A stretch of 56,189 nt of DNA, the filler included, from Sphacelaria rigidula (taxonomy: Eukaryota): assembly GCA_964200075.2 (NCBI GenBank). It is 7 parts of 7 records of this genome, joined end to end, with 100 filler letters (N's around TTAATTAATTAA, not from the genome) between each part and the next. Parts side by side here need not be neighbours in the genome. Positions count along the whole stretch, not along the records: positions 40,208 to 48,148 come from CAXNAA020012903.1; 6 more parts are not named here. The stretch is one strand, 5' to 3'. Positions 17,259 to 54,103 of this stretch are shown here, piece after piece. The stretch's first letter is position 1; every line of letters starts with the position of its first letter. The notes under the pieces are model-generated. The model worked only from the letters and a program-made list of their open reading frames with translations, was not told the origin of the DNA and did not search any database. The position numbers were made by a program, and so were the translations under genes.

Positions 17259-17408
17259 CACACTCTAGATGATGACGAAATAATACACAGTCAAAACGTT
17301 GACTGCGTATAGTATCGACTGTTGCGCCTATTGCAACAGATAATCAATTCCATACTGTACGCAGTGCATTTTTGGACAATATATTCTATTGTCGTTATCC
17401 AGGGTGTG
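17259..17408. mobile_element. CAC-ended mini-MITE, copy 1 (inside a putative GTGAGT...TTGCAG intron, 17223-17433)
   Basis: CACACTCTAGA...TCCAGGGTGTG ends; colinear with 20599-20737 and 23254-23390. Confidence 0.65.
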
Positions 17409-20598: not shown

Positions 20599-20737
20599 CA
20601 CACTCTGGACAACGAGTTACACCGTCAAAAAGTGTACTACGTACAGTATGAAAATCTGTTGTCTATCGCAATGGATGCAATAGTAGATTCTGTACGCAGT
20701 GCACTTTTATACAACATAATATTTTGTGCAGGATGTG
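20599..20737. mobile_element. CAC-ended mini-MITE, copy 2
   Basis: CACACTCTGGACAA...TTGTGCAGGATGTG termini. Confidence 0.75.
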
Positions 20738-23253: not shown

Positions 23254-23390
23254 CACATCCTGGACAATACATCATGTTGTCATACAGTGTACTATGTACA
23301 GTATAGAATATGTTATCCATAGCAATAGACGCAGCGGTTCATACTGAACGAAGTACACTTTTGGCAATGTAATCTTTTGTCCAGGGTGTG
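23254..23390. mobile_element. CAC-ended mini-MITE, copy 3
   Basis: CACATCCTGGACAA...TTGTCCAGGGTGTG; reverse complement aligns to copy 2. Confidence 0.8.
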
Positions 23391-30694: not shown

Positions 30695-32066
30695 TTAGGA
30701 CAAATCAACTCGTGAGTTAACTCAGAGACGAATAGATCATACGGTTCGCACATAATTTGTAATTCACGCAGCCAACCCTTCTTCATGAATCAAGGCGTGA
30801 TTGGCTTGTACATGTACGTCATGTGTGACAAGTTCGACGTGAGCGCCCGTACATGTTTCTCACCTTCGGATTAATGCGGGACCTACATAAGTCAAGGGCT
30901 CTGAACCACACACACTTTTCTCCAACCTGTGATGCGCGCAAGATGTCTTCACTGCACAATATGTTATATGTTATCCACCTTCGGGTGAATGTGGGACCAA
31001 CACTCGGAAAAAAGATGAATTCTGCCCTTTAATATTCATAGGGCCTGTATCACGCGTATTTTTCTCCCATGGGTAATGCTCTGCATATGTGTTGTCCACC
31101 CTCGACTCAGCGGGGCAATGGTTTATACAGCATGACTGCTGGCGCATCATGACGAGTCAATATAAGACCACACTCGGCAGGTACAAGGGAGGCGCGGCAG
31201 TTCGCCGCGGCTGTTAAGTACCGTGCACGAGCGGTACCTCTGCGTAATGGTCGGAAGATGCGTTCTTCCAATCAAGAACAATCGACGGCGTGGTCGTATG
31301 TTGTTGTGTTGGGACCTCACAGGAAGGAAACACGCAATAATGTACTGAAAGCACCTGTACAGCGGATTGCTCCGTCGTGCTGGGAGTACAACACGGAGCA
31401 CTTTTCACTTTTCTGTGCTTCAAACTAACCGACAGCGAAGGGGATGTGGCCGGTACCATAGTATAGGAAAGAAACGTCGAGGATATTGTAGATTGCACAT
31501 CGTGAACAAGGTTGCGCAGTGGTGTACGGTGGTTCACCGCGGTTGGCAATTGCTGTGTAAAAATAGACCTCGACGGAACCCACTCGGGGTTTCCTTGTCC
31601 GGACCCAACAACACAATTAGGACGGGAAAATAAAATCGATTCAACTCAGAGTCATCATTCGACGAATAGATCATACTATTCGCACATCATTTGTAATTCA
31701 TACAGCTTCTTAGCTTGTGCGTGGTGCAATATAACCCGAAGATACCCGCTTCATGCCTTTCATGAATACGGAGGTAAATGATGGGCACATAGTCAACCCT
31801 GCACTGCAAATTTGGATGCATCGATTGTACATGTCACGCACTTCTGATTATCATGAGTCAGGAACGTCATGTACAACTTGCTTGACCAACTTGTTGGAGG
31901 TAAGCGCCCGTACATGTTTCCCCCTTTCGGGCTACGGCGGGAGCAACAAGTTGTACAGGTTGAATGTTCACTTCCGATGGGCCCTGAACCACGCGTAATT
32001 TTTTCACAGCTGTAATGCGCGCAAGATGACTGCGCTGCATATGTGCTATCCACCCTCGACTCAGCT
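30695..32066 (+). repeat. Two diverged direct copies of a ~420-450-bp repeat (30695-31110, 31615-32066)
   Basis: Shared blocks GACGAATAGATCATAC, TTTGTAATTCA, AGCGCCCGTACATGTTTC, ATGCGCGCAAGATG and TCCACCCTCGACTCAGC in the same order. Confidence 0.8.
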
Positions 32067-33421
32067 NNNNNNNNNNNNNNNNNNNNNNNNNNNNNNNNNN
32101 NNNNNNNNNNTTAATTAATTAANNNNNNNNNNNNNNNNNNNNNNNNNNNNNNNNNNNNNNNNNNNNACCCGAACATCAGGCGTTGTGTGGCCCTTTTTTT
32201 CGTGACACTTTTAGCTGGCGTTGGGGGGGGGGCTATTGTAGAAAGCGGCACGAGTTAGAATAAAAACCTTGTCGAGCACGAGGCCAGTGCTACTGGAGGA
32301 GTCCCTCGTGGACAGTCCTCTTATCCAGATCGTCTGGCAGAGGCTACAGGTCGGTCAATATATGTTGGATATTCATAAGTATGGTGTACGCTTTGAGAAA
32401 GGTCCAGACGCGATGGATGCCGGAGCCCGTGCAGACTAGGAAAGGTTTCAAAGAACACCGCAGAAGTTCGCGTGCATTGTTAAGGAGAGTTGCAATGTGT
32501 ACACTCTCCCCACGACGGAAGCCGGTACGATCAACCACGACTGGCGGAGCGTGAACAAACTACTCCGCCCATAGTGACCCACCGAGTCCCAGCGGCTCCG
32601 TAACAGGCGATCGTCGAACGGTTCCTCGACTGGCACAGTCAGCCACAAAGCCAGAACCACCGAGCTTCTTCCGTAGTCGTAACTATTCATGGAATAAAGA
32701 GTTGAAAAAGCGACGACAGCCGCCACGAACTACGAAGGAATGGTAATTCAGGAGCGATAGACCGTGCCCAACAAAATGCAAAAAAAATCGTGAAGTTTGC
32801 TGTCTATAGGTTCTTTGCTTTACTCTCCCGAAGTATTCGTTGTTGCTTTCATACCGGGGTAAACGTTCTGCAGCACGCCAAGCACAACAGGCCCAAACAT
32901 GGAGAAGCACAGTAACAAGCGCAGAAATCAGAGATATGAGCACGCACAAAACTCAGACATGAACACGCCGCATTCGCAAATAAGCGATGAGCACAACACA
33001 GGTAAGACGGAGGGCGGCACGGGCGAGGTGATCACGTGGCTTGGACGAAAATCAACTAACTAGGTTCTACTATGTTCGGCCAGCGAGACTTCGACATCTT
33101 TTTCATTATCTGAGCATACCGTATTTTTGCGCTTGACAATCCTAGGGAACATTGTTATGCATCGCCGGGCGCGCGCCGAAGTCGTACCTCGCAGCGTTCA
33201 TACCGCTAGCCGCGACGGTCGGGAGACCAAGACCCGGCAGCGTGGAGTCTCCGCAGTGCAGAAGACCCTTGAGCGGTGTTACGCAGCCGGGGAATTCGGC
33301 CTCTCCAGCCCTTCACCCGGATCCGTACGATCCTGGATGGCATATCGTCAGTGATTGTTTACAGCTTTCGCTATGGAGGCAGTCGGATAGTACATCAGAG
33401 TTTTTCGGATAGATGAGTTGC

Positions 33422-36400
33422 ATGCTATAATCTGGAGAGTCATTCGTAACTCAGCTCATCAAAAGTATCGACAAGTTCGACGGTACGAAGTTCGTCGAGT
33501 GGACGCGCTCTACGCGCGCGATTATACATTTAACTCATGTGGGGGTTTCTGATATCTTTAACGGGGTTGAACGCCCCACGGAAAGTTACGATGGAGCTTT
33601 TCCTGAGGTAGACCACCCACAACCAGCTGCTAGATCGACATCAAGAACAGGCCCCATTGCGACCCGTTCCAGAAGACATCAGTAGCCGCCCGCTCGTTCG
33701 CCTTCACCATCGGTGGGGGCAACCGCGAGGAGCGAGGCGACATCAACGGCGGTTGATACAGACACTGCTATGATGTTCACGCCCAACCTCCTGTTCGAGA
33801 ACTGTTTAATCATCTTAGCGTGTCGTCACATGTGAGGCAAATCTTGAACGCGCGTGACGTAGAAAACTGGGACTGGCATAACGAACAGTTGTTCAACGAC
33901 TTGTATTTGTCGACTACTGGTTCAGCGGCAAGTTACCTCCTGCGTTTTCAGCCGAAGGGTTCTGAGAAACCAAACGGCGAATGTGCGTGGGAAGGTCTGG
34001 TAGCAAAATATCAGAATTCATCTAAGTAGAGACGCCGCTTACTCAAGAGACAACTGGACGACACCACCTTGTCTCCAGGGCAATATCCGGATGTCTTCCT
34101 CGCGAAACTATTTCAGGTTCGAGACGAGCTCGTTCACATTGGCAAGCCCATCTCCAATGAAATGTTGACTGATACAGTAATCGAGGGTCTAACCAGCGAC
34201 TACGATCAGATAAAGTACAACGCCGAACGCGACCTGGGCTTCAGCGTTGGAGAGATCGAAAGTACTATGCGCAACATGTATGCAAATAGAATGGCGCGCA
34301 AAGTAACAGCGAGCAGATCCAATGGCCGTCATTCATCCATGCGGGCAACATCGATGTCGAACTCTTTGAATAATTCCGCGAAATTTCGTAGAAAATGCTA
34401 CTCCTGTGGGAAACCACGTTATCGTATGCGCGACAGTCACTCCAGACGACAGTCCAGTAATGGAAACAGGCCTGTAGAATGGTGCAGTTTTCACCAGATA
34501 GACAAACACGACGACCCTGAGTGAAGAAACCAACTCAACAACAGGAACGGGAGCACCAACACCGGCAACAACAATAATCAGCACCGTCACAGCAACCCCC
34601 GTCGTCGCAACATCAACCACAACAACAACAATAATAACAACTGCAACGACAACAACAACATCAGCATCAACAACTTCGATGGACATCAACGCCAAGCTAG
34701 CACTGCCATCGCCGATCCAGCTTCCACGACAGTACCATCGAATGATCAAGTTCAGCATATTTCGACACCCTCGGCTGAAACAGTGATCGATAGATGTCGA
34801 CCACCAAACGGCATGGGAGTTTCCTTTCTTTTATGTCCACGTGTCACTGACAACCACTGTACAGCAGATCAAATCCCCTTCAAGATGGCAGTTGACAGTG
34901 GCTCCGGCAGGACCTTTTTGGATGATCAGGTGTTGCCAAATATCGAACGTGAAGTGGTCGACTACGTGAAGCGTGATCGATCCATGACTATCCTTACTAC
35001 TGGGCGTGATCTACTACATATATGGTACAGGAAGAGGCGTTATCACCACCATATTCACTGATTCTGGAGGGATCGAGCGTACTGTTCGGCTCCCTGCCGT
35101 GTTTGTTCCAGGTCTCGGGAAACATTTGTTCTCGCCTATAGAAGCACTGACGAAGGTTGCTTTGACTATTGTTTCCAGGAACTCTCACGTCGACCTTGGA
35201 ACCTTCAAAGTACCTATAAACAGTGACTTCAGCGAAACACTTCCGTACATCCACTTGAAGATTTCTCAGAGACCAGGGATCACCAGCTTTAGCTGAGCAC
35301 TGACGGCGACAACTATATCAGGGGAATCGGCACTGTTCATGTAACAGAAACAGTTCGAGATATGGCCGACGATTTAACAGCCTTATCTACCACGGTGGGA
35401 GCAGACGTATGGCACAAGCGACTGGGACATCCTACGGAACAGGTCATGCGACGTCTTCAGAGTATCCCCCAATCAGGTGTGAGGTTTGAGGGTCGCTACC
35501 GCCTTGTGAAACCTGCAAAATAAATAGGAGCGTACAGCAGGATCACCCCAAAACTGACTCCACCAATATTTCGGAGCGATTGCACTGGTCAGTGCCGAAC
35601 TGTCAGGACCTTTTTCACCTGCCGCAATGGGATGCTATCGTTGCATGGCGAAACGTACGGGTTACTACACACGGTTCAAGGTGGTTTACTTTATGAAGAC
35701 AAAGGGCCGAACCCTCACCACGCTCTGCCGGTTCATCCAAGATCTGGTTATCCCTTTCACTAATGCCGAGATAGCCCCCCCACAAAATGTGCACGGGAGA
35801 CCGTACGACAAACCGGCTGCGATCCCACTATTGGGCTCGTTTACAGCGATTCCGCCCACATGACCGGGTTGTAGCAGCCCGAAATCAGCTATAGTGCCCA
35901 AATGAGTCGCGTCGTGAAGCACGAAACCAGCTCGAACGGCATTTACGATCATCGCTTCCGTGCACTTTTTTGGCCGGTTCGGGGGGGGGCTATCTCGGCA
36001 GCAGTCCTTCAGGGCTCCGCACACAACGCCTACGGTCAGACCGTGGGGGTGCAAACATTGCGGACTACTTTGGAAGATACTGCAAAACAACGGGTGTTCT
36101 TCGAAAATTTACAGCCCCGTACACACCCCAACAAAATGTCATTTTCGAGCGAGACGGAAGAACTATCCTTAATATTACGCGCTGCCTCCTGAATGAAGCA
36201 AATTTGCAGAAGATCCTTTGGGGGGAAATTGCGGGAACTGCTGGATTTTTTATCAACCGCTCGCCGCACACAAGCATCGGAGGAGACACCCCATACCGTC
36301 GGATGTTTCTCGAGGAACCAAGCTGTCGTTTTTGAGAGCCATCGGTTCGAGGGCGTTCGTGCGCAATGAGCGCCATCAGATAAAATTAGAAGAAAAAGCT

Positions 36401-37842
36401 CAGGAAGCAGTATTATTAGTAGAATATGACTCTGATAGTCCATCTTACCGTTTCTATGACCGCTATTCCGGGAGGATATCGAATTCCCGCAACGTCACCT
36501 TCATCGAGCAAGGGGTTGGGGCTCTTCACAGTAAAGAAGATTATTCTGCACCGGACACACGAGGGACAGACAACTCCGAAGATGACTATCTACAGCACGA
36601 CGATACCAACAACTTCAACCTCAACATCCACGACGGAATCTTACAGCTGGAAGATAACATCATCAACGATACTTCATCATACGAAGGTCCGCTAAGCACC
36701 CCAATGAAGGATTGTTTACCCGGCGGTGTCAAATACCCCACATTTGCACCGATCAACTAATGTCAAAACAAAGAATTGCGGCCACTAGCTCTTACATCTA
36801 CAGAGCATTTGCGTACTACTACGACTCTGGAAACGGTATGCCAGTACATCGGAACTGTAGCCATCGAACAAATTGTGCCACCTGCGTCCATTTCGGTTCC
36901 TGTTATTTATCGCCAAGCATCTTGTTCGCCTTATGCAAAGAAGTGGAGAGCAGCTATGCTGGACGAACTCCAAAGCATAAAAAAAAAACACCAGGGGGCA
37001 GACATCATCCCGGCTAGTTTTGTACCTCCTAACAACAACATCATCGACACGAGATGGGTCTTCAAGGTCAAAGCTGATAGACGAGTCAAAGCTCGGTTGG
37101 TAGTTCAAGGATGGGCTCAGAGGCATGGGCTCGACTACGGAAGTACGTTCGCCCCTTTTTGCCGGCTAGAAAGTCAGCGATTGCTACTGGCAATTGCCAC
37201 TGCTAAAATTTGGCGCGTCTTAGCCCTCGACGTCCAAACAGCATTTTTCAACGGGAAGCTTCAAGAAACGGTGTTTTGCAAACAAGCGCCTGGCTTCGCA
37301 ACTCTAGGTCCCACTACAGGAAACCTGCACGTGCTTCAGCGTAGGAGAGTGCCCTCTGCGCTTCGACAAGCACCGAACGTGTGGAACGCTGCGATCGACA
37401 AAGGGTAAAACAAAATAGTTTTTTCTGCCGCTCAAGCGATCCATGTGTCTTCACGAAAGTGCCCCATGGTGGATATATCATGTTGACACTGTTCGTAGAT
37501 GACGTACTGATGACAGGTCCATCCATCAATCTGCTGCATCAAGTACAAGACTCGCTGTAGACAGAACTCTCTATATCCGAGCTAGGACCGGTATCCCTAA
37601 TCCTTAGAATGGAGGTAATTGGAGATGAAGCACGACGGACTCTGAAGCTATCGCAGCACAATTACGTATAATCTCTACTTGAAACATTTGGGATGGATTC
37701 ATCTAACCCGGTTCACACACCCGGGACCCCAGACCGACTGGTCGAAGACGCACCTGAAGACATCTTCCTGGAGCCGTCAGAGAAAATCAAGTATCAAGCT
37801 GTGGTCGGGAACCTCATCTTCCTGGCGCAGAGCACAACATTC
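33422..37842 (+). mobile_element. Decayed Ty1/copia retrotransposon A (gag-PR-IN-RT), many stops and frameshifts
   Basis: KFDGTKFVEW gag start; CYSCGK knuckle remnant; AVDSG protease (34894); WHKRLGHP pre-integrase (35410); LRSDRGG...PYTPQQN...ERDGRT integrase; RWVFKVK...KARLVVQG, DVQTAF and FVDD (37492) in RT. IN precedes RT (copia order). Confidence 0.95.
35758..36006. mobile_element. CACTA-like MITE inserted in the copia A integrase
   Basis: TIR core TGCCGAGATAGCCCCCCC (35764 and 36000). Left terminus CACTA; approximate CTT TSD. Excision restores DLVIPSGLRTQRLRSDRGG. Confidence 0.85.
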
Positions 37843-38367
37843 TGTTCGGTAGAGTCTAGAGTTATATGGCTTGAGCACTCATTGCTCAACCAAAAACGTA
37901 GAAAGCAATCTCGCACAGCGTCTGATGTCGAAGATGAAGTCACAGAAGCAGAAGCGTATAGTTGTCTTTTATTGTCTTATTCATTTCAGACCGCTCATGG
38001 GCAGGAAAGCGCGCGCGCGCACGCACGCACACAGACACTGAACACGGTGGGGTGAGATATGCGGAGGTGCATCATCGTCGACTCCTTCTCGAGCTACGGC
38101 AAATATTTCCTGTTTCATCCGGAAGAAACATACCGTATACCACAAGATAACTCCCCGTCGTTTCCGGATTAGTTAAGAACGAAAGTGAGAACAACGAACA
38201 CTTTCAAGAATATTCCGAGAATCGATCCGAAGCGTCGTTCTACAGTACCATTCCTGGAAATCCCCGGTACCGTTTCCCATCCGTTAATCCGCCGCATTTC
38301 CCCCCGATAGTCTCGTCAGAGTATCCTGGGTTTTACATCTACCATGAGTGAGATCACACGATTGACA
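37843..38367 (-). mobile_element. Probable 3' LTR of copia B (525 bp)
   Basis: Minus strand starts TGTCAAT immediately after PPT AGGGAGGG (38375-38368) and ends ...CGAACA. Copia A RT homology stops exactly at this boundary. Confidence 0.7.
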
Positions 38368-38685: not shown

Positions 38686-40107
38686 ACTTGATGTTCACTA
38701 GGAGATTCATGTGGTACCTGAAGCTACCAATAGGAAAAGGTTTCGTCAAAACGTCTGCGTTCTGCTGAGAAGACTTGAAATACTCCACTCGAATGATTTG
38801 TTCAGACACCAGTTCCCTCTGAAAATGATGACGCACATCAATGTGCTTGCTCTTGTGGTGGCTTCGCGGATTTTTCGCGAGTTAAATCGCCCCCTGGTTA
38901 TCCTCATACACCGTCAGTGGAATACAAAATTCCTTCCTTTGCGGCTGCATAAATTTCAGCACCGCCTTCACGAACAGAGCATCCTTCACTACGTCGCCCA
39001 TCCCGCGTATTCAGCCTGAGCAAAAGAGAGAGGGTTACATTCTTTTGAGTGCGAGAGAAAAATCCTACAACAGCCCCGCAGAAAAATGTCACCCCTCCCG
39101 ACACTGAACGCCGATCATCGATTTTCGCATAGTCTGCATCCGCATAAGCCACCAATTCGAACCCCTAGCATACGTGATTCTCAAGCCTACTGTTGTCTTG
39201 ATGTACTCAAAAATCCGCAACACCTTGCGCCAGTCCTCAGGCGTCGGGTTTTCGTTGTGGCGGGATGCAGCTCTCACGGCGTCAGCGATGTCCGGGCGGG
39301 TGTTGATGGAGAGCCACATCAAAGATCTAACCGCCTCACGGTACCTCCCCTCGAAATCCTCTCCCTCGTCCACCTCACAATCAGAAGAAACAGACGCAGG
39401 GGTTGCAGCGGTCGTTTTGATAAAAAATCTTCCAAGAATCCGCTGAGTATACGCAGTCTGAGACAAGTTGAGGATCCCTTTCTCGAGATCGTATTTGTAC
39501 TCACATCCTGCGTACCAGATAAGCTCACCAAGGTTCTTCGTTGGAAAAGGTGCGTTGAGATCCTCTGCCGACTTGTTGCACACAGACTCAGCACTCACAA
39601 CGAACATGTCATCGACGTGAACCACAATAAGAACTTTGACCTTCTCGCCGTTCAACAGCCTGAACACACACGGATCTATCAAACTCTGTTCGAAACCCAG
39701 ACCTTCCAGAGTTTTCCCCAGTTTCCCGTACCACTCTCTAGCAGCTTGCTTCAAGCCCCAAAGTGACTTGCGCAAACGCACGACAGTGCCAGATCGTTCA
39801 CCCAAACCTGGCGGTAGCCTCATGTACACGTCACCCTCTAGTCCCGACCGACCGAAAGCTTGCTCAACGTCAAAATGAAAAATCGTCTTTCCCTCTGCGC
39901 AAGCTACCGCTGCAGCTACTCGGTCAGTCGTTGTGGGTGGGGTTGGTGAGAACGTCGGAATGTCACCAATTTCTCGTCGATCACCCCTGAAAACCAATCG
40001 AGCCTTAGCCTTCATCACGTCACCATGTTCATCGGTTTTCCTCTAAAAAACCCGCTTCGAATCGACAGCTTTCTCTCCAAACGGGGGTGAGTCAAATACG
40101 GTCCACG
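38686..40107 (-). mobile_element. Ty1/copia retrotransposon B, RT-RNase H (pseudogenised, cut by the fragment end)
   Basis: KAKARLV, DVEQAF, SLWGLKQAAREW, DPCVF, HVDD, YADADYA..DRRSVSGG, DNQGAI, KHIDVRHHF, ADVLTK. In-frame stop near 40042 and frameshifts. Confidence 0.95.
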
Positions 40108-40281
40108 NNNNNNNNNNNNNNNNNNNNNNNNNNNNNNNNNNNNNNNNNNNNTTAATTAATTAANNNNNNNNNNNNNNNNNNNNNNNNNNNNNNNNNNNNN
40201 NNNNNNNCTGGGGTTTAAGCGTAAACAATCCAGTCGTTCTCGCTTTTATCCCTGAGCTCTGATTTGTGTTTCCGAAACTCT

Positions 40282-41174
40282 CCATTGTCTTTTCAATATA
40301 TATTGTGTTGGGGTGTCCTCGGAAATATCGAAGCAACAACATATATTGCTCGTGTCATGATCATGAAGTAATGTATGTCAATACATATATTGGGCATGCA
40401 GTTGCTCCGAGAATGAAACATTCAATATATATTGTGCATGCCGGCCGTGTATGTATTGAAGTGTCAATATATTTTGAGTCGAGGCGATGCGTAGCATATT
40501 GTTACCGTAACATATGTTGAACGAAAACCATGCAGAAGTATTGTTTTTCCAATATATATTGCGCACGCTGATCGGATAGCTATTGTGCAGCCAGTATATA
40601 TATTGAACACGCTTGCGGAGAAATACATTGAGCATTTTCGGCATGTAAAATACATCTTTGAATGGCGCCCGCGAACAAGAACTGCCCACTATACTAATTC
40701 CAATACACTTTCCAATCTATACGTTGAAAATCAATATATTTTGCTACATCAACATGTATTGTGACCGTCGGTTCCCTCGTGTATTGTCCGCCCAACATAT
40801 ATTGGACGCATTGACGCACGACATATTGCGGCGGCAATATATATTGGCGCTTCGGGTGTCGAGTATATTGAATCGTCAATATGTATCGACCTCGGGTGGC
40901 AGCAAATGTATTACTTGATAAATATATATATATATATATTGGTCCTTCTCGCACCAACATATTACTCGGCCGGTATATATTGAGGTGGCGCGAGTTGTGA
41001 TACATTGTTCGGTCGATATATATTGCATGTCGCGAACCTTGACATATTGATGGCACAATATGTATTCACCCTCTCTCGTGTCATCATATTGCTCGCCCAA
41101 TATATATTGACCACCCGACCCGTCGATATATTGAGCGGGCAATATATATTACATATTGTATTGTCCAGGGTGTG
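40282..41174 (+). repeat. Phased 42-43-bp motif/variable-spacer array ending in TIR TTGTCCAGGGTGTG (probable subterminal region of a CAC-ended DNA transposon)
   Basis: 12-mer starts at 40294, 40337, 40379, 40423, 40465, 40508, 40550, 40592, then 40750, 40793, 40835, 40877, 40920, 40971, 41014, 41056, 41098, 41140. Nearly all are preceded by ATATTG-like + 6 nt. Confidence 0.85.
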
Positions 41175-42611
41175 TACTGATTGTACCATCGTGTGTATTG
41201 TCGTACGACATTATCGTTTACAGTGATGATGGAGTGTACTGCACTGTATTACCCTATGGTACCACGGCACGACACTCTGGTTGAAGGACAATTCACCGCC
41301 TACCCGTTCTTCGGCTTCACTACAGTCAGCGATTACACACCCCTGCAGAAAATGACACCGTGTACAGAACCATTTCAACAAATCTGTGAAACCATACTAA
41401 AAGGTGAGGTTTTGAAAACGGGATTCTCTGAAAAAAGTCGCTGAAAAACGTCGTCCGCCCGAACTTTTTTCAGTGGCTTTTTCAGTCCAAAAAAGGCAGC
41501 CTCACCCATGCGAGGCGCTTCATCCCATCTGAAACGAATTATCATACCCTGCATGGACATTTTTCTCGGTCGCGTGGTTGGGTTGGTTTGAGGGGCGCGG
41601 GCGGGGGGCTATCGCGGCGTCACTCTACTGAGGGCCAATGATGAATAATATATTCCATAGGGCTTTGAACTGGCGGCTCTGGTCAGTTAAATTTAATCAT
41701 TTCGCTACCGATACCGTATCGATCTGATGGCTGGTTCGGTATACAGCGCTATTATTTGCTTATGGTAAGTGGTATACTTAATTGGGCTGTGAACTGGCGG
41801 CTCTCGTCATTCAAGTTTAAACTGACCGCGCCAGCAGCCAGTTTTTCAATGTATTTCAAGTTAATCTGCGGAAGCCGATCAACTGGAAATACATCGGTGG
41901 CGAGAGGCGAGACCGCGAGCTCCAATGGCTGGTGAGGGGGCCCCGCGGGAACGCCGCCGGAGCCAAGAAAAACTGCGGTATTTTGACTTGATTCCTCTTG
42001 AAAAATCGCGGAGAATTGTCAAAAATGTGAGTCCTCACATGGAGGAGCTACGGCCTTTAGGTGATATTAGAATCTTATCCGACGTGGGAACGGATTCAAA
42101 AACCATCTGTTTATAGTAGCCCTAATATTTTAGGAGACGGGACGCTCCACAAGGGAGGGACGTAGGGAAAGAAAGTAAAAGAGAGAAAGTGAGGGATGGT
42201 ACAGTAAAATGGAGAGCGTACTATTTGAGTTGTCGACCCTGAGAGTGGATTGCATCGTTTGTGATATTTGCTCGGGGTGTGCTTCTAGCACCAGGATGGA
42301 GAAATGCTCCGGACGTGGAAAGGTGCAGGCATTTTCCACTGTTCGTGCATGTCTGTTCGCATCCACGCTTTGCTTTGCATATCTGCCTGCCATCGCGGAA
42401 ATTTGTTACTTCGAAAAGTATGAATACTCCATATTCACAAGAGAAGCATAGTGAAGGATCAGAGCGTAGCGGGATCTGAGGGTTGTGAATCGGGACGAAT
42501 CTATACAACATGAAACTTTTAGCCAGCCGTATTGCAGTCAAGTACGAATCCGATCATACATAAACGGATTTACATAATTGTTCCGGTCGACGGGGGGAAG
42601 AAAGAAACAGC

Positions 42612-43185
42612 TGTCACTTGGCTGTCATGATAATTTAGATAGAACCGACAGACAGTACAGTAGTATACAATCGTTCACTGTTCTCAACGAGGCACCTCTG
42701 GCCTCTCCTTTGGGTTTGTAACGGACACTCACAAAGTGGGAGAGTACACTCCGCATACAATACACGCACTTGGCGGTAGACTTAGAAGAGGGAAGCCAGG
42801 AGAGAGAGGAAGGGAGAGACCGCAACACAGTAGCACACACAGTAGCAGCAGCAAGAGTAGACCCTACATACCTCGCCTTGGGTTGCCGGCGTCGAGTATA
42901 TACTGGTATGTTTCTGTTTGTCAGGGATCAATCTCACACAGAGGGAAGGCACCCTCAGTACACATTACACGAACTCTTGACAGTAGACCGAGAAGAGGAG
43001 AGAGGAAACACAGAAAAGAGAGCAACACAGATGGCGGTGACAACAGTAGATGCGAACTCCTTGCGGATTTATCGAACAACAGTCAGGCTTACCTTCTTGT
43101 CGCTCCTCCTTAGGCCGATTTTCTGGTCGGTCCATCCTTGTTATCTGACCTATCCGCTCTCTGGGCAAAATTTCACGACGTGACA
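42612..43185 (+). mobile_element. Probable LTR (3' LTR)
   Basis: TGTCAC...GTGACA termini, preceded by purine tract GGGGGGAAGAAAGAAA. No TSD or partner LTR seen. Confidence 0.45.
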
Positions 43186-43869
43186 ATCCGATTTGAGTTC
43201 GGTCGTAGCGAGGTCGTTAGCGTGGAGTGAACGTCTCTGCCGCCCTCGTGCTCTGCGATGAGGGGAACCCGTACGCTCGCCGTTTGTTGACATAGAAACC
43301 GAGATTAGTTCAGATCAATCGCGTGCGCGATGGCCGGAGCTTGTTCTTGAGATGCCCCGAGAATCATCGGGTCGGTGTAAACGGTGAAAGTCGACCACGT
43401 GCTTCAACACCCCCTTCACCTCAACCACGAACGGCGTCAGCACGCATAAGCGAAGACAATACAGAAAGCAGCAATGAAGGTGAACCTTCTTGAGGGTGTT
43501 TAGAGTGGTGATTCGGAGAGTCGGTTGCTGCGTGTGATGCCTCCCACCTCGAAAATTGCCTCGATTGAAGTTGCGACAGTCATGTCTGAGAAGTCAAGGC
43601 TCGCTCTGCTCGAAGGAGGTCGAATTGGGTGTGTTCTTCCGTGCGCTCAGACACACAAGTGAAACACAACGGCGTGAGCACCAATAAAGCTTCAACATTT
43701 TGAGGGCGTCTCAAATGATGTTAAAAGAGCGATGGGATAGTCTTATGGCGCAGGGCGGCTTTGAATCAACTCGAAAAAAAGAAGTACGTGGTTCGGAACT
43801 TCGTAGTGATATTCGGACGGACGGAAGACGATTTTTGAATTTAGGAGCAGTAGAAGCCTTTTCAAAGGG

Positions 43870-43974
43870 AAAATGTATTGAGGCTAAGCCTTACCTACCC
43901 AAAATTCGAGTAAAGTATACTCGGGCATTTTACCCGAGTACTCAAAAGCACATACTCTGCTCGACCTGCCCTTG
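43870..43974. mobile_element. Terminal fragment of the P-like family
   Basis: Ends ...TACCCGAGTACTCAAAAG...TCGACCTGCCCTTG, homologous to the 12259 and 46939 termini. Confidence 0.7.
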
Positions 43975-44404
43975 CACTGTTTCCGCCGCTGGGTCGTCCA
44001 TGGAGGAATCAGATGTGCAGCCCGTAGAAAATCTTTTCTTGACAATACCTACCCGACTACCCGTCTACTCGATCATCCAATAGTGATGAGTAACACTTTT
44101 TACTGAAACTGATGTCGAAGAGGTTGCGAGATATGAACTATGTACTGCCATATGTGAAGGCAGGTGAGCTGGGGCAGGTAGGTTCATTCACCCGCACGCT
44201 TTTTTTTTCTTTTGATGGCCACCATTCCCTCATGCTTATTGTAGCACGTGACGTAACGTCACTCATCTCCTTGATGGCCATCGTTCGCCAATATATTCAA
44301 CATAGTCTATGAAGTGACGTCATGAGGTCGTCGACGGTCACGGTTACTCATCATACCCAAGTGATACTCCACACCTGAGTATTACTGAGAGTGCTTACTT
44401 TTTA

Positions 44405-44959
44405 CTCCTTCTGTCCGAAAATATAAGTCCGATTTGCACCTCATGACAAATCAAACGCTCTAGAATACAAAAGAGCAGGTGCTGGGTTCGATTTCCTCCT
44501 TGAACACCGTTTTTTTTCGAAAAAATCACTTTTTTTGCATTTGTTCTTCCCTCCATGCCTTTTTTTCGGCTTAAAGGTCTTAAATTTTGGCACCCTGTAG
44601 TTTTGCTCTCGGTCAACGGCAAAGATTTATTCTTTTCAAAGTGCACGCCTACAGGTGGCTACATATAGCCAAGATTCCACCGAAAAAAAACGTTTTCCTC
44701 GCCACGTAACTGAGGGAAAACGTACGGTCTTTTTTCTTAATGAACAGATCTTCGGCAAATCCGTCTGGTGCCAAACAAACCCATGGGAGGGGATGAAAAC
44801 GAACCATCCCCTGTTTTAGGCCATTTTTTTTAACAGTACTACCATTGGGAGCACGACACAAAAAAAATGAGGCAAAAAATACATTGCAACGCTCTGAACG
44901 ACAAACCGACCTTATATTCCGAATTCCCAAATGGGAATTATATTTTCGGACAGAGGGAG
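44405..44959. mobile_element. Stowaway-like Tc1/mariner MITE (555 bp)
   Basis: TA|CTCCTTCTGTCCGAAAATATAA...TTATATTTTCGGACAGAGGGAG|TA; 21/22 TIR match. Confidence 0.92.
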
Positions 44960-45706
44960 TATGTTTTTTTATGGCCACCATTCCCTCACACTTATTGTAG
45001 CACGTGACGTAACGTCACTCATCTCACTGAGGGCCATTGTTCGCCAATATATTCAACATAGTCTGTGAAGTGACGTCATAAGGTCGCCGAGGGTCACGGT
45101 TACTTATCATATCCAAGTGATACCCTGTACTTGAGTATTACTCATGATCATGCATGCCATAGTCATCAGACCATTGACCTCATACTTTTTCTTGTCTTTT
45201 GATGGCCACCATTCCCTCATACTCATTGTAGCACGTGACGTAACGTCACTCATCTCATTGATGGTCATCGTTCACCAATATATATTCTGTGAAGTGACGT
45301 CACGAAGTCGCCGACGGTCATGGGTACTCATTATACCCAAGTGATACTCTATATCTGAGTATTACTGAGAGTGCTCACTTTTTTTTCGTTTTTGATCGTC
45401 ACCATTCCCTCACACTCTTCGTAGCACGTGACGTAACGTCACTCATCTCATTAATGGCCATCGTTCGCGAATATATTCAACATAGTCTGTGAAGTGATGT
45501 CACAAAGTCGCAGACGCTCACGGTTACTCATCATCCCCAAGTGGTATTCTATACCCGAGTATTACTGAGAGTGCTAACCCAACACTTGAGTAGAGTATTG
45601 AAGTTATACCCAAGTGATGCTTTATACTCAAATATTACTGAGAGTTCTGACCCAAAATTTGAGTAGAGTATTTGAGGTCGTACTCAATCTACCCCAAATT
45701 CGAGTA

Positions 45707-46636
45707 CCAGCTGGGCCAGCTGACAGTTATTTTTTAATCAAGAATGGATATCGATTGGTAATTCGGAGAGTTAGGCGTTGAAATTTTGACACGACATTTT
45801 CATCATCAACCCGGGCAACCCTACGACAAGTGCGGAGGGGAAAAAAAAAAAGGAGGTTAGAGCGAGTTGAACTTTCAGCAAAATCAGGAAAAATGCTATA
45901 ACTTCGTGAAAAAATGATAAAAACGGCTGCAATCACCAGTGGGTTGTGGACACTAGCGTCAAAGATACCCTGATGAAGGTTCGGCCAAAAATACCTCAAA
46001 TTGAGCATCGCGTCGCACTTTTCGTGCGACACGGGTGCGCCCCGCTAGTCAAACTGATACGACAGCCTCCAATTACACATTCACGAGTTCGAATCCTGAC
46101 ATGACCACTTTTTTTGTACATAATCTTTCGCACCTCCCAGGTTGCAAAGGGTCTCGATATTTTGGTGACGGTCTTGCTTCTTCTTCTTCTTCTTTTTGGG
46201 GGGGGGGGGTATAGCGCAGTTTCAAGTAGGAATTCTCCCTGGTGCGGTGATATACGATAGTCGGCTCGGAGGTTCTCTCCCATGATGGAGCTGTTGACGA
46301 GTTTATATCATCTTGCAGCATTCCCAGTCTGCTCTCGCCTGGGCATGTCGGGTGTGCGTGTGCGTATGCGGCGCAACTGTCTATAGTAATTTCACCGCAT
46401 TTTGTGAAACGAAACATCTCCAGACACGCTGCCACGCATCGACAAGAGACGTGCCGAATACTAAATGCAGTACAATAAGATCATTTCCAATACTGCGCCA
46501 GTCGACCAGCGGCGGTGCCGTGTGTTACAAGGTTGGTCTACAGTTCACAGCGATATGCCCAAGTGAGGCTGATTTGAGAAACTTGACAAGTTGTGGCGGA
46601 GGGAGCGAATGCGAGATTTGCTGCTGGCCCAGCTCG
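45707..46636. mobile_element. Tc1/mariner-like non-autonomous element (930 bp)
   Basis: TA|CCAGCTGGGCCAGC...GCTGGCCCAGCTCG|TA. Excision restores the host subrepeat GAGTAGAGTATTT.AGGTCGTACTC. Confidence 0.85.
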
Positions 46637-47204
46637 TAGAGTATTTCAGGTCGTACTCAATTTGCTCAATATTTGAGTGGAGTATTTGAGGCCATACTCA
46701 ATTTACCCGATGTTTGAGAAGAGTATTGGGGCCATACCCAAGTGATGCTTTATACCCAAGTATTACTGAAAGTACTCACCCAATTATTTGGTACAGTATC
46801 GGAGGTCGTACTCAATTTACCGAAAATTTGAGTTGAGTATTCAAGGCCGTACCCGATGTACTCAAAATTTGAGTGGAGTAAATACTCGAGTATTCTACCC
46901 GAGTATTCAAAAGTGCATACTCTACTCGACCTACCCTTGGAAAGTTCCAAACACACATGGTTGACTTGGTGAGCGTTTCGGCTGTTTTGCGACCAGGCCT
47001 TCACTCACACTAAAAACCATCCCCCGCACCTGGAAACCCCCGGATGTCCCTGGACTGTCAAGTGGTGAAACTGGTGAGACTGCTCCGAGGCGACGCTCGC
47101 TGTCCAAGGGTTGAGGCATTCGCAGGGCTGTGTTCGGCAGTACGGTATGAGATTCCTCACATAATTCCCGGGCACCGGCATGACATTCTTACAGGAGATA
47201 CAGA

Positions 47205-47497
47205 CACCAATTTTTTAATTAGGGATGGATTTTTTGTTGAGGGTGAGAATTCGGAGAAATGAAATCTTCGTATCCACGCCAAATATTCGAAATACAGTTC
47301 AACTCCTTCACCTACTGGTAGCTTTTGACAACCACTATATGCCATCAAAATTTGTATCCTGATGACCGACCTGTTGGGGTCCTAGGTCGAGAAATATTTT
47401 TGGGGAATTTAGTGATCCGATCACAACACCGATATTCCCCAAAATTGGTCCTTCACCTAGGACCCCTACATTTTGGCTATCGAAATCCAAATTTGTA
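47205..47497. mobile_element. Third copy of the foldback MITE, interrupted at TA 47496-47497 by a CGAGCTGGGCCAGC-ended element
   Basis: Shares CCTTCACCTACTGGTAGCTTTTGACAAC with ~1448-1475 and GATCCGATC centre. Homology stops at TA|CGAGCTGGGCCAGC (47498). Confidence 0.8.
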
Positions 47498-50180
47498 CGA
47501 GCTGGGCCAGCCTAAAAACGGATTTAAGCTCTAAAAGCAATACCTCATCGACGCAGACGAGTNNNNNNNNNNGTCTAATCAAGGGGAAGGTGCCCATCTG
47601 CTCGAAAGTTTGGGCCCATATTCTCTCGTTGATTAAACCCCGTGTCTAGCAATTCCTATACCTAAGGGAGATAGCGCCAATACCTTGCCAATACTAAAAT
47701 CTCTGTGAAACTCCTGATCGATGTATTTAGCGGATGGCGACAAATTCTGGTGTGGAGAAACACAAAAGAGTGCCGAACAAAGAAAAAAGTGGGTCTTCCA
47801 TTTTTTTTTTTTTAATAGAGGTTAGGGCGTTTTTGTGAAAAAATGGTCTTCACCATAGTAGAACGCTCTAAACCTGTGAAAAAAATTGAAAAAAATCAAC
47901 CTGACCCATTCTTTTTTGTTGAATTTACCTTAGAGAGCGCCCATACCAAATTTCAAAACACGAAAACCAAACGTGGGCCCGTGAGTGGCCTGCGAAATAC
48001 TGTTCCGGATCTCTACCGACCCGATTTCTGATAGGCCCCATGCTCTTTTATGCATTAGAGTTGGACCCTGAAATTTGGTATGGACAGTACATAGGGCATA
48101 AATATATATATATATATATATATATACTGGAGTACCAAAAGTGTTTTTNNNNNNNNNNNNNNNNNNNNNNNNNNNNNNNNNNNNNNNNNNNNTTAATTAA
48201 TTAANNNNNNNNNNNNNNNNNNNNNNNNNNNNNNNNNNNNNNNNNNNNTTTGAGAAACTGAGAAATTACGGATTCTGCATACTTCTGACGCTGACGACTG
48301 TATCTCCATAAATGCCCAGTGTTGCGTCAAAATAAGAATAAGAGGAAAACGGAACAGGAATTGACCGCTTTTCCCTCTAGTTCGCACTGCTGCAGCGCAC
48401 AGTCCCAGATATAGCGACGTGGAACTGTTGGCTGTGGTTTGCATAACGTGTGAGCGAAGTTTCAGCGCCTCGCAGCGGCTACTGTACAGCGCGCGTATGG
48501 TCGTGCGTCATGAAGTGCGCAGCTCTACAGACTGTATGCGGATCGGTACACTGCAGATGGTCATAATCCAGAAAGGGTCGCAGTACAGACCGGTGTCAGT
48601 TTGCTACCACATCGGCCGCCCAGCCGCTCAATATGTCGAAGTTTGTGCATCCGCGTGTGCATGTACGCATTCGCCTGTAGTGCACGGAGTCTGGGCAGCG
48701 GATAGCCGATGTGAGGGCGCATAGACGGCATTCCCCGAAATCGCTGTGGCCATGTTGTAGGAATGTCTGGGGCCCGATCGCGCGGATGCTTCGCACATAT
48801 GCTGTCTGTGTTGTGTCCGACTAGTGTGCAACGTTGCACTGGAAATTCGGAGTTTACCGTAGGAAAGTATCCAAATAAATATGAGATGAGGTTACGCCCT
48901 GGTTACGCCGCATATCAGATGCAGTTACGCAGTATTACGGTATGGGTACTGTCTGTGTACAGTGAATTGCATCAGCGTATTATACTGCACTTTATAGTGG
49001 TCATGACAGAATTTTCAAATTTCAAAGCCATCAGCTGCGCCGCTAGACATGCATGTAAACAATCGTGCCGTTCTCATTTTCTTCAACGGCAATTAAGATG
49101 CTTTTTTTTCAGGCGAATTGCACACTTTATATGCTACGCCCCAGGCGTGGTGATGCGCTGGAATGCGAAGCGTGGTCGCCACCTATCGCCGTACCATTGG
49201 GCCCGTAAGGCACCCGTACCGAGCAACACCGTGCACACCACCGAACGCGGGACATAATCACGTTCTCAGCCTGCAACTTGTGCCGACGATCTAGCCATGA
49301 CATAGCTCTTCGGATATGCCGCGTGTTGGGCCGTAGGTTCTCCATCTTGGGCACCTCGTACCTACTTTGCGGATGATCCCAGCTGATAATTTATACAATG
49401 ACTATTGTATGCGAAAATCCACAGACATTTGATTTTTTTTTGTTTTGGCGCAACACTGGCCTGTGTTGGCGATTCGGCGCCATTTGTGCCCCAATACGTG
49501 GCGTGGCGGACTGGGCCACCCAGGAAAGACTTGCGACCCTAGGGTTGTAGCGCACTGTTGCGAGTTTTCGCAATATCCGTTTTCCCGATTTTTCGCCACG
49601 TCCAGGTTACCTGCTCTCAGACCGTTTCTTGCGGTGTTTTTTTGGGGGGCGTGGGAAGCGTATTTCCAGGTTTCGGGTATTTGGCAAGATTTTTGACCCC
49701 CAAAACAGAGAACATCGCCATTACATGTCTTGGACACTTTGCATCACCCCACCGAGAGGAGTCTAGCCCACTTTGCCGATTCACTTGCAAGGTTTCGAGA
49801 ATGGCCTCTGAACAAGAATACATGTGGACAAAAAGATGCGGTGTCTGCAGGTCTTCCGTAAATACGATGGACGAATAGATTCAACACTCCAAGCAGTATT
49901 GTCCACGATATGAAAGAGAATCCCCGGGGGGGTTGCCGGGGTGTTATTCACCATATATATGGCTCAGTTTTTATGAGTCTGGTGCTCCGGACAATTTGGG
50001 GGACGATACAACAACCGCTCCATCACAACTCTCATACACTACTCGTGCCCATGGTCGGTCGCCGTTTTTTTCCCTTACACCTCTGACAATACAGGTAGAC
50101 AGGCAACTTTGGATGCATCATTGCTTTCAATTACGAGGCCCTGTAGAGATATTATTGCGCAGTAGAGAAAGCTGATATCG

Positions 50181-50537: not shown

Positions 50538-52168
50538 AGAGCTGTTGATATGCCTTCTTCAACGTGTATGTGCGTGTGCATGTGAGGTGCTTACAGTACT
50601 GGGCGCCTTAACTGTTCGTATTGATAATTTCTTCGTGATTGGCGATTTTGTTAGGTTCCTTCGCTTGCCACCGCTCATCACATTGCGGATCCGAAGATAC
50701 TTGTATCCGCTCAACATTCCAAGAAAAAAATGTCATCTGTACTCAATAGTGAGTTACGGGCTGATCGGTCATCGGAGGTCCTGCCGCGTTTCAGCCCAGA
50801 TTCTGATTCCCCGGTATTTTCGGTCGATCGAGCCTGTCCCGATAGTATTTGTGAAGAAATGCACAGTAATGATTTTTTTATATTCCACCCACTCATTGCA
50901 CTAGAGTCGAATAACTGTAGTTCACGATCACTAACACCCTCCTGATAAACAGGATATCTACTCGTATCGCCCGATAACACCAAGTAACACTTACTTGGGC
51001 ACTCGGGAGGGGGGGGGGGCGATCTTTTTATTTTACCAAAATCTACCGGCGCTAGCACTTTCGAGTTCTATCAAAGAGTAGTCGCGAGAAAAAACCCTTC
51101 TGAACCATTGACAGTCCAGGCGCCCAGTGCTATAGTCGTCCTCGTTGGTATAAAATACAACCCAGGGTAACACGTTTTGCACATGAGCTGGGAAAGTTCG
51201 CTACGGCCTACTGTACTATATCTACTGACCGTACCATACGCTGCACTGTCTGCGGTAACGGAAGATTTTTCGCCACGAGTAATACCCCGCTCAAGGCATT
51301 TTTTTATTTGCCTGCAGTATCGGCCTTTTGCTTCCATGATTCATGACAAACTTTACGCGCGTGTCAGATGACATTGCCGGGGCCCAATCGATGCCACCTT
51401 TTGCAGGAAGCTCTGTGTATGACATGTGTAAAATGAGCTCAGCCCCGTCAGAAGCTCTTATCGCGATCACAGGCTGCGTACAGTAACAGAGTATGACTTT
51501 CACTTGAAATAGCTTCTCATGGGGACAATGGCTGGAACGTTTTCCCATCGACTAGATTTTTCGCAACCTCTCCACGCCTTTTTGTTTCCCCCATGGAGTG
51601 CAGCACCACGTGTAAAATCTGGTCATGTTCCAAAACACTAGCCTGGCTACCAGAGGTCAAATGATCGGAGCAGGACGCCGCGGGCGCTCAAAGAATTGGC
51701 CGTTTGAGCCGCTCGGGACTGTGCCGAGGCTTTACACGCCGACAGTTCCGAGACTTTGTGGAGGATGGTGTTCGTTGGCGTAGATGAACGCCACAAGGAT
51801 TTGGGTGCTTCGCAAAAGTGACCCAAAAGAGAAAGAAAAATAAAGCTAAAAGGCGGGAAGCTATATCTTGCCATGGCTGTACGAGGCGGGTGTAATTATT
51901 TTACCCTCCGTGTAGTTAGCAGGAAGAAGTGTCCTGTGAGGGTTAGTAGTGCCACGACGATGGCTAACCTCACCAGACCTCTGGTGCATACAGGGATCAT
52001 TGTACAAGCATTCAATGGCAAAAACCCGAATGCTTTCGCGGAGCAGTTGCCGACACCGTGGCTTTGCGTGCGGGACAATCTCACCGCTGTGGTTTCGTGC
52101 CTGGTCGTGTGTGTTGTCAACTTGTGCTCACCCTGCTCAACTAGCTGTGGGGGCTGAAGGGAAATTTC

Positions 52169-52322
52169 CAGGGCTCTTTACGTTACACGTCACAAATTTC
52201 GTTACACCTCACACGTCACAAGTTCGTCAAGTCAAGTCAAGTATTACGGTGGGGGACCACGTAGGCCCCCACCGTAGGACCAGCCTGGCTTAACTTGTGA
52301 CGTGTAACGTAAAAGAGCCCTG
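52169..52322. mobile_element. 154-bp hAT-like MITE, same TIR family as 5446-7093
   Basis: CAGGGCTCTTT(T)ACGTTACACGTCACAA TIRs; perfect 8-bp TSD GAAATTTC. Confidence 0.95.
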
Positions 52323-53649: not shown

Positions 53650-53721
53650 TGGAGGTATGGGGATTTGAACCCCAGACATTTCGCATGCGAAGCGAACACT
53701 CTACCCCTGAGCTATACCCCC
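53650..53721 (-). tRNA. trnA: tRNA-Ala(CGC)
   Basis: GGGGGTATAGCTCAGGGGTAGAGTGTTCGCTTCGCATGCGAAATGTCTGGGGTTCAAATCCCCATACCTCCA folds as a full cloverleaf with G3:U70, anticodon CGC and discriminator A. A T5 run follows. Confidence 0.92.
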
Positions 53722-53850
53722 ACTGGTCACCTTCGACCTGAGTGACAGTTACTTCGGCGTGTAGTATATATGTTGCAACGGCTGCAGGTTTTACCGGCGT
53801 TTACCTTCGCGTCACTACGTCTCCTTGAACTCTTTCGCCCAAAAAGGAAG

Positions 53851-53902
53851 TGGAGGTATGGGGATTTGAACCCCAGACACTCTACCGCTGAGCTATACCT
53901 CC
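53851..53902 (-). pseudogene. tRNA-Ala derivative lacking the anticodon arm
   Basis: 20-nt deletion between ACA repeats removes the anticodon stem-loop. G3 changed to A. A/B boxes and T-run retained. Confidence 0.9.
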
Positions 53903-54031
53903 ACAGGTCACCTTCGACCTGAGTGACAGTTACGATGACGTGTAGTATATATGTTGCAACGGCTGTAGGTGCTGCTGGCGTTTACCTTCGCCTCACCACG
54001 TCTCCTTGAACTCTTCCGCCCAAAAAAGGAG

Positions 54032-54103
54032 TGGAGGTATGGGGGTTTGACCCCCAGGCGTTTCGCATGCGAAGCGAACACTCTACCCCTGAGCTATACC
54101 CCC
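54032..54103 (-). tRNA. trnA: tRNA-Ala(CGC) variant or pseudogene with altered T-loop
   Basis: Same body as 53650-53721, but T-loop is GTCAAAC instead of TTCAAAT (B box damaged). Confidence 0.7.

Follow-up and report, generated by a model that had tools for sequence, protein, structure and literature searches.

A ~42-bp periodic motif array at the probable end of a high-copy DNA transposon in Sphacelaria rigidula

Arrays of short reiterated motifs at the ends of DNA transposons are a known kind of feature, occurring in CACTA, hAT and Mutator-like elements. Among the described cases, the direct and inverted subterminal motifs of En/Spm are bound by the protein TNPA (PMC2613891), while the BED domains of Hermes bind short subterminal repeats, with cooperative binding of a palindromic pair and a phasing that the account in PMC10368747 calls crucial. 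In the Muta1 element of Aedes aegypti, a 12-bp subterminal repeat is present 9 times, with variable linkers of 3-4 bp in between, and the duplications are 8-9 bp long (PMC5499845). According to the same source, more of these subterminal repeats mean stronger transposase binding and more excision. Here we analyze an array of this general kind from the alga Sphacelaria rigidula, which lies at 40282-41174 of a 56,189-nucleotide stretch of assembly GCA_964200075.2 (hereafter the window, meaning the whole stretch at its full length). We consider it likely that this array makes up the subterminal part, at one of the two ends, of a cut-and-paste DNA transposon with many genomic copies, and that its repeated motifs are, most probably, docking sites for the transposase.

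Layout and conservation of the array

With the anchors placed in register, the periodic array extends over 40294-41160 and holds 17 full units followed by a terminal unit. Each unit is built, in order, from the 12-bp palindrome CAATATATATTG, a long spacer of 17-20 bp, a third ATATTG-like hexamer and a 6-bp spacer. The units range from 41 to 44 bp in length and form two blocks parted by a decayed stretch, so that the locus reads as follows:

40209..40281, plus strand: non-array interior of the element adjoining the array, its left side cut by an artificial joint at 40088-40208 and its summed contig depth as high as that of the array
40282..40635, plus strand: array block 1, 8 units of 42-44 bp, with palindromes at 40294, 40337, 40381, 40423, 40465, 40508, 40550 and 40594
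40636..40749, plus strand: degenerate stretch of 114 bp, or about 2.7 units, with motif remnants such as CAATATATTTTG at 40732
40750..41139, plus strand: array block 2, 9 units of 41-43 bp, one of them with (TA)n, and palindromes at 40750, 40793, 40835, 40877, 40930, 40971, 41014, 41056 and 41098
41140..41160, plus strand: terminal unit, a palindrome-like 12-mer and then two more (A)TATTG copies abutting the terminus
41161..41174, minus strand: terminal inverted repeat (TIR) and end of the element, reading CACACCCTGGACAA on the minus strand
41175..41182, no strand: 8-bp flank, the would-be target-site duplication, as suggested by the 8-bp duplications of the mini-elements described below

The left limit of this record stems from the makeup of the window. 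Linkers of the form N50-TTAATTAATTAA-N50 recur in it about 8,025 bp apart (7937-8042, 15979-16084, 24020-24125, 32061-32166, 40102-40207 and 48143-48248); hence, the window consists of seven separate pieces of about 7.9 kb, and features across a linker are not genomic neighbors. The array sits at the cut start of piece 6 (40209-48142), and the N run at 40088-40208 that precedes it is the artificial joint rather than an assembly gap.

The excess of the palindrome and the periodicity of the stretch both establish the array as a real feature. Allowing for at most 1 mismatch, the window contains 13 matches to CAATATATATTG, where 0.12 would be expected and no shuffle gave as many, and 11 of the 13 near-exact matches fall within 40294-41151. 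The autocorrelation peaks at a lag of 42 (z of 5.7 in block 1, 6.4 in block 2 and 6.7 over the whole stretch; 200 shuffles), with echoes at lags of 84-85 and 127. Since the identity at lag 42 is just 36-39%, none of the 34 rows reported by Tandem Repeats Finder lies at the array. The initial annotation had described about 18 units in blocks of 8 and 10, with a degenerate stretch of about 110 bp between them. The two blocks and the intervening stretch, now measured at 114 bp, are borne out, but the count for block 2 is not, as there are 8 and 9 full units and then a terminal unit that is joined to the terminus. Likewise, the long spacer is variable as described, though its length is 17-20 bp and not 17-19 bp, and the array is periodic, though calling it 'strictly phased' at 42-43 bp was somewhat of an overstatement, given the insertions and deletions in the long spacer.

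Successive anchors are 43, 44, 42, 42, 43, 42, 44 and 42 bp apart in block 1, starting from 40294, and 43, 42, 42, 53, 41, 43, 42, 42 and 42 bp apart in block 2, starting from 40750. The 53-bp unit is a 43-bp unit enlarged by a (TA)n run in its palindrome; this run, a (TA)11 microsatellite at 40920-40941, is derived from the AT core of that palindrome. The fixed core of the array is a 24-bp module, ATATTG-N6-CAATATATATTG, in which the 6-bp gap is exact in all nine block 2 units, while the insertions and deletions of the units are located in the long spacer. In block 1 of the present copy, 4 of the 8 units have a third hexamer that is decayed or out of position.

Column by column, the modal letter is shared by 13-18 of 18 units in the palindrome and by 10-16 of 18 in the third hexamer, as against 6-8 of 18 in the 6-bp spacer and 5-11 of 18 in the long spacer. 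The spacer columns are at chance level, and the earlier description of kept AT-rich motifs and variable parts that differ in each unit is essentially correct. The GC content of the two spacers is 0.57 and 0.52. Compared pairwise over about 18 positions, the spacers score 6.35 on average against 5.55 +/- 0.15 for shuffled ones, and adjacent spacers 6.67 against 5.41 +/- 0.36 (0 of 200 shuffles as high in either case), whereas the best single pair, with a score of 10, does no better than the mean maximum of the shuffles (10.16). The slight excess of likeness lends some weak support to the proposal that the units arose by ancient duplication. With the motif columns kept and the spacers barely more alike than shuffles, conservation is confined to the hexamers and their spacing.

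The multiple of three in the unit length (42 = 14 x 3) raises the question of a protein-coding repeat of 14 residues. There are, in fact, two stop-free frames on the minus strand, 40381-40716 (112 aa) and 40697-41065 (123 aa); however, the unit lengths of 41, 43 and 44 bp change the reading frame along the array, and neither frame matches a Pfam family in a scan of 78 of the 85 open reading frames (ORFs) of at least 110 aa in the window. Moreover, with a palindrome that is stop-free in all frames and GC-rich spacers, open frames of this kind are expected by chance, and we accord a coding repeat hardly any probability.

Terminus, mini-elements and genomic copies

The array leads directly into the terminus TTGTCCAGGGTGTG at 41161-41174. 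This 14-mer, at 2 or fewer mismatches, is found 7 times in the window as opposed to 0.39 expected, and six of the seven matches are assigned to three inverted pairs in piece 3. These pairs delimit three mini-elements of 137-150 bp, each an all but perfect palindrome whose arms measure about 65 bp, with inverted termini of the CACACCCTGGACAA type (the left arm of M1 is too degraded to count among the seven matches):

17259..17408, no strand: mini-element M1, 150 bp, near-palindromic; 8-bp flanks agree at 6 of 8 positions, read by eye and inside a T run, which makes them weak evidence
20599..20737, no strand: mini-element M2, 139 bp; 8-bp flanks agree at 7 of 8 positions, and other lengths from 2 to 11 give at most 3 matches
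23254..23390, no strand: mini-element M3, 137 bp; 8-bp flanks agree at 6 of 8 positions

Among flank lengths of 2-11, the match for M2 and M3 peaks sharply at 8 bp, and the chance of at least 6 matches in 8 is 0.0064, as estimated from 200,000 random pairs drawn from the window. By contrast, the 3-bp flanks match at 1 of 3 positions in each of the three. The mini-element flanks therefore fit an 8-bp target duplication. The final 24-31 bp of the array, including its last hexamer copies, align to the ends of the mini-elements; elements that would depend on mobilization in trans have thus retained no more than the terminus and one or two copies of the motif. The suggestion that the array stops at the TIR of mini-elements of about 140 bp is thereby confirmed. 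Outside the terminus, the stretch 41175-41400 is itself repetitive (summed depth about 2,000-7,400 in X1, one of the sequencing runs introduced below), with a terminus-like ACACTCTGGTTGAAGGACAA at 41272-41291 and nearby stretches that resemble the interior of the mini-elements. From this content, the element seems to have inserted in or beside a related mini-element.

The palindromic structure of the mini-elements is also what commends a foldback-type inverted terminal array, acting mainly via DNA secondary structure instead of protein sites. Both strands of block 2 fold better than shuffles (z of -4.0 and -3.5; 0 of 100 shuffles as good), and the related mini-elements are almost perfect palindromes with their arms of about 65 bp, but a folding excess is expected of any set of self-complementary 12-mers, the stems here are weak and made of AT pairs only, and an inverted partner array, at a second end that lies outside the window, is hypothetical. 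Further, the foldback-end repeats of Muta1 act by strengthening transposase binding, as reported in PMC5499845, so that this explanation, which we hold to be unlikely in its own right, largely merges with that of transposase docking sites. We also considered the folding of the strands as evidence for an RNA and rejected it, since the excess follows from the repeated self-complementary 12-mers.

Other genomic copies were sought in contigs from public sequencing runs of the same organism. Contigs of three DNA-like runs were aligned at 85% likeness or more to the 2.4 kb at 40209-42600, with 40910-40948 passed over as a repeat; X1 and X2 carry one organism label, and X5 is labeled 'algae metagenome'. 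Each run yielded 4,527-5,532 contigs on this stretch, with 46-120 contigs per variant site. The summed depth of the array bins amounts to 8,078-32,318 in X1, 21,972-90,225 in X2 and 26,073-107,006 in X5, as compared to a depth of 9-10 (X1) and 26 (X2) for contigs that match the present locus exactly. The array thus stands about 800-3,400-fold above the exact single-locus contigs, an excess that we read only as 'hundreds to thousands of copies' because summed contig depth is not copy number. The non-array stretch 40209..40281 has a summed depth of 11,162, 35,220 and 50,829 in X1, X2 and X5, respectively, which is as high as that of the array and indicates that it, too, belongs to the repeated element. 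The decayed stretch at 40636..40749 has about one-third of the summed depth of the array bins on either side. A further run, X6, is only presumed to be RNA, and its array contigs show neither transcription nor silence.

At the other edge, 93, 118 and 135 contigs in X1, X2 and X5, respectively, become unlike the window exactly after 41174, with a consensus agreement of only 0.39-0.40 in the sequence beyond, and the depth falls about four-fold at this point (from 32,318 to 7,373 in X1). This divergence is the signature of one terminus set in many different flanks. Inside the array, on the other hand, the copies agree in their variable parts. Motif letters account for just 43% of a unit, so that contigs some 200 bp long that align with 10-15% mismatches must have the spacers in common as well; many of the other copies thus have this spacer series, with its order unchanged, at 85-99% likeness. 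Joints in the contigs that skip 40, 42, 44, 48, 72, 74, 78, 91 and 128 bp show that the number of units differs between copies. Taken together, the same spacers in many copies and the divergence after 41174 identify the array as an inherited transposon end.

The comparison of spacers between loci had been proposed in the initial annotation as the means of telling such an inherited end from its speculative alternative, namely a repeat/dual-spacer array that is cut into guide-like small RNAs and acquires its spacers from invaders. Conserved repeats with unique spacers do give the array the formal look of such a system, but nothing beyond that look speaks for it: spacers that recur in the same order in many copies are inherited and not acquired locus by locus, the array ends in a transposon terminus, the lengths of the spacers are set by the lattice, and the hairpin stems have only 6 AT pairs. 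As the annotation had already observed for cas genes, no effector gene is visible, either in the Pfam scan or by way of an Rfam family; in particular, a search of 40209-48142 against Rfam gave 0 matches at E up to 0.1. As to copies outside the genome, the pattern ATATTG-N6-CAATATATATTG-N17-19-ATATTG has 0 occurrences in viral contigs and 0 in metagenome contigs, and the terminal 20-mer 0 in metagenome contigs. With many loci sharing one spacer series, the guide-RNA alternative fails by that comparison, and we regard it as extremely improbable. Within the window, blastn of 40209-41500 found no further copies of the array, giving only matches of the array to itself at 70-75% and TA microsatellites.

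The copies also permit an estimate of the state from which the present one departed. Among the 40 listed of 272 differences, there are 16 well-supported array sites at which the majority of copies differ from the present copy. Seven of these 16 sites lie in the motif (40329, 40511, 40516, 40887, 41003, 41062 and 41067), and at all seven the majority letter restores the consensus, as in the change of ATATCG to ATATTG at 40329. Hence, the founding element had cleaner motifs, and the deviations of the present copy are its private decay.

These differences bear on a more prosaic explanation, in which the array is a functionless minisatellite inside a transposon and the motif survives through mutation bias instead of selection for binding, with AT-only hexamers and (TA)n slippage being stable and GC- or CpG-rich spacers mutating fast. 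Transitions do dominate the differences between copies, with C>T at 25-28, G>A at 25-31, A>G at 21-24 and T>C at 16-21 places across X1, X2 and X5; one palindrome has expanded into the (TA)n run at 40920-40941, and tandem repeats are described as common inside DNA transposons (PMC8101967). However, the spacers have kept a high GC content, which speaks against a simple decay toward AT, yet they are unrelated between units. Slippage, moreover, gives no reason for the retention of the C and G that flank the palindrome or of the exact 6-bp gap, nor for the recurrence of the motif at the very terminus and in the ends of the mini-elements. We therefore judge the minisatellite explanation to be improbable, if worth keeping in mind. 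Conservation limited to the hexamers and the distances between them, the recurrence of this hexamer at the terminus and in the mini-elements, and random linkers argue for selection on protein-binding sites in the active lineage.

Superfamily placement and proposed role in transposition

Inverted termini on three mini-elements, 8-bp flanks and many copies in differing flanks are the marks of a class II TIR transposon. The length of the duplication fits hAT, P (~8 bp) and Mutator-like elements (8-10 bp), which are the candidate superfamilies. The transposase of hAT elements is a BED-finger DDE enzyme with a hAT dimerization domain, and their short TIRs start with 5'-YARNG, to which the terminus CACAC does not conform. 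The main duplication length of hAT elements is 8 bp (PMC5499845, PMC3706591), and Mutator-like elements have 8-10-bp duplications and TIRs of more than 100 bp that are often made up of subterminal tandem repeats (PMC5499845). Of these Mutator-like features, a repeat-built end and the 8-bp duplication are found here, with mini-element arms of about 65 bp and one end of the array-bearing element in view. Two further superfamilies were rejected. First, Merlin elements have a terminal 5'-GG and 8-9-bp duplications (PMC8101967), whereas the termini here begin with CA. Second, CACTA elements are defined by a 3-bp (2-4 bp) duplication (PMC2613891), whereas the duplication here is 8 bp, the 3-bp flanks match at 1 of 3 positions in each mini-element and the termini are CACAC or CACAT; with an 8-bp duplication and CACAC ends, membership in CACTA/En-Spm fails. 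The earlier comparison to En/Spm nevertheless holds as an analogy, as the array does possess subterminal direct and inverted motifs in the style of CACTA elements.

Against this background, one of the closest likenesses is to Muta1, a Mutator-like 'type 2 foldback' element, in which, as far as its published description goes, a short terminal motif is likewise followed by many conserved subterminal repeats, the differences are confined to the linkers and the duplication is 8 or 9 bp. The dissimilarities are those of scale and geometry: Muta1 has 9 direct repeats in a 145-bp TIR with linkers of 3-4 bp, while the Sphacelaria array has 17-18 units of about 42 bp over about 0.9 kb, with tripartite inverted and palindromic sites and linkers of 6 bp and 17-20 bp. 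Hermes, a hAT element, shares with the array, as far as its published description goes, the 8-bp duplication, motifs of 4-6 bp spread over at least ~200 bp of the ends, a cooperative palindromic pair and the importance of phasing, though the sites of Hermes are irregularly spaced and asymmetric between its ends. Subterminal hexamers are also present in Ac, Tag1 and Tol2. En/Spm and other CACTA elements resemble the array in their termini, which start with CAC, and in their reiterated subterminal motifs, both direct and inverted, to which a DNA-binding protein attaches in cis; they differ in their CACTA termini, 3-bp duplications and motifs that lack a fixed period, as opposed to CACAC, 8 bp and a period of about 42 bp. 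What stands out in the array is its extent of about 0.9 kb and 17-18 units, its tripartite module, the complete divergence of its linkers and the abundance of the family. A literature string search with the 12-mer and both strands of the terminus, whose scope did not extend to Repbase and subscription journals, returned only an unrelated primer match, and the DNA-transposon family and its mini-elements are apparently undescribed.

Based on the arrangement of the motifs, we posit the following role for the array. Each unit of about 42 bp would offer a 24-bp tripartite site, ATATTG-N6-CAATAT/ATATTG, which amounts to three copies of one hexamer, with an inverted pair across a 6-bp gap and an overlapping 12-bp palindrome. 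A DNA-binding domain of the transposase, or of an accessory protein, would bind the hexamers as dimers, for which their layout suits two alternative registers. The period of about 42.5 bp corresponds to about four helical turns and might place successive modules on one face of the DNA, such that many phased sites could load several protomers and thereby improve the recognition of the end and synapsis. Selection in the active lineage would then have preserved the motifs together with the distances between them, whereas drift randomized the linkers. That the array is a binding lattice at the end of an as yet uncharacterized CAC-ended transposon, as originally preferred, is supported by the terminus it shares with mini-elements flanked by target-site duplications, by the divergence of the flanks after 41174 and by the shared spacers; the binding itself, the protein concerned and the part played by helical phase are our inference from these features.

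Several points weigh against this proposal. With unit lengths of 41-44 bp the helical phase is approximate, and shifts of 1-2 bp would be incompatible with a rigid lattice. The third hexamers are poorly kept in block 1, and the window contains only one end of an array-bearing element and no full-length copy. In Hermes, mutation of the interior repeats is reported to have cost only ~30% of the activity (PMC10368747), which means that an extended array is not necessarily of great consequence. None of the ORFs covered by the Pfam scan has a DNA-transposase domain, the 4 that matched all belonging to retrotransposon (Copia-type) families; the 7 outside the scan are overlapping frames in the Copia region (34336-34830-, 35689-36108-, 36039-36494-, 36658-37014+, 36788-37165-, 39020-39763+ and 39108-39443+, with strand). 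As to the copies, their number is read from summed contig depth, the runs may include the sample from which the window came, and the threshold of 85% likeness leaves out arrays with other spacer series, such that a shared series applies to many loci rather than to all.

Sites for host factors, carried by the transposon and serving the host or expression, would be another way of accounting for a set of conserved motifs; candidates include binders of TATA-like or AT-palindromic sequence, a replication origin and a scaffold attachment region. The core of the palindrome is a TATA-like AT run, and regularly spaced palindromic sites recall the arrays of origin-binding sites. On the other hand, the same hexamer is found directly at the cleaved terminus and in the mini-element ends, where contact with the transposase is expected, and there are 0 Rfam matches and nothing gene-like beside the array. 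Such a host function appears to us quite unlikely.

Building on the docking sites proposed for the transposase, it is conceivable, though we rate it as a long shot, that the element, with its CACAC ends, its 8-bp duplications and its lack of fit to the CACTA and Merlin definitions and to the hAT terminus, belongs to a lineage of algal DNA transposons that has yet to be assigned to a superfamily, and whose transposase or accessory protein may polymerize along the lattice of 17-18 tripartite sites over about 0.9 kb. If this were true, it would imply a filament-like or wrapped transpososome, in contrast to those described to date, which are compact dimers, tetramers or octamers. Additionally, a lattice present in roughly a thousand copies could titrate the protein and thus set the activity of the family itself. 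Leaving this aside, nothing in the finding indicates a novel type of system. Its value lies rather in the clean natural case that it provides, where the putative binding hexamers persist in a set geometry and every linker is randomized, and which thereby displays the letters and distances that were retained. It could guide the biochemistry of multi-site recognition of transposon ends once an autonomous copy is known, and it flags an abundant family, together with its mini-elements, for the annotation of the algal genome.

Other repeats in the window

The remainder of the window has several further mobile elements and repeats. Piece 5 contains two fragments of Copia-type retrotransposons, at 34030-38055 (plus strand, with broken frames) and 39089-40042 (minus strand), with RVT_2 matches at E of 2.7e-29 and 5.6e-31 (the latter for the reverse transcriptase at 39092-40042), a retroviral SH3-like domain and a weak match to the Ty capsid. 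The Copia reverse transcriptase to the left of the N run was considered as a neighbor of the array and dismissed, as it lies in a different piece. In the protein cluster nearest to this reverse transcriptase, the single member with a known phylum belongs to Rhodophyta, a link too weak to indicate a taxon.

A second repeat family consists of 41-bp tandem units, 65-80% alike and with short inverted motifs, at 12323-12690, 14380-14634, 45577-45705 and 46636-46931. Its copies in pieces 2 and 6 are mutually inverted, with 255-nt arms that are 76% complementary, and these repeats probably make up an end of a further DNA transposon family, with a period of ~41 bp. Also in piece 6, the region 44200-45590 has four copies of a unit of 97-199 nt around a palindromic motif of the ACGTGACGTAACGTCAC type, each terminating in CAATATAT; these units are unrelated to the array beyond a short AT motif. 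Dense arrays of ACGTTACGTCACA-like motifs at 5439-5768, 6843-7032 and 52162-52206, the first of which includes 3.7 tandem copies of a 33-bp repeat (5652-5768), have the look of subterminal motif arrays that belong to one more element. At 4393-4589, a 98-bp unit is duplicated in tandem with 100% identity, and this duplication must therefore be very recent. Finally, an interstitial AACCCT run of 4.5 copies at 54471-54497 adjoins a 181-bp tandem repeat (53585-54130) whose 2 copies are 89-91% alike.

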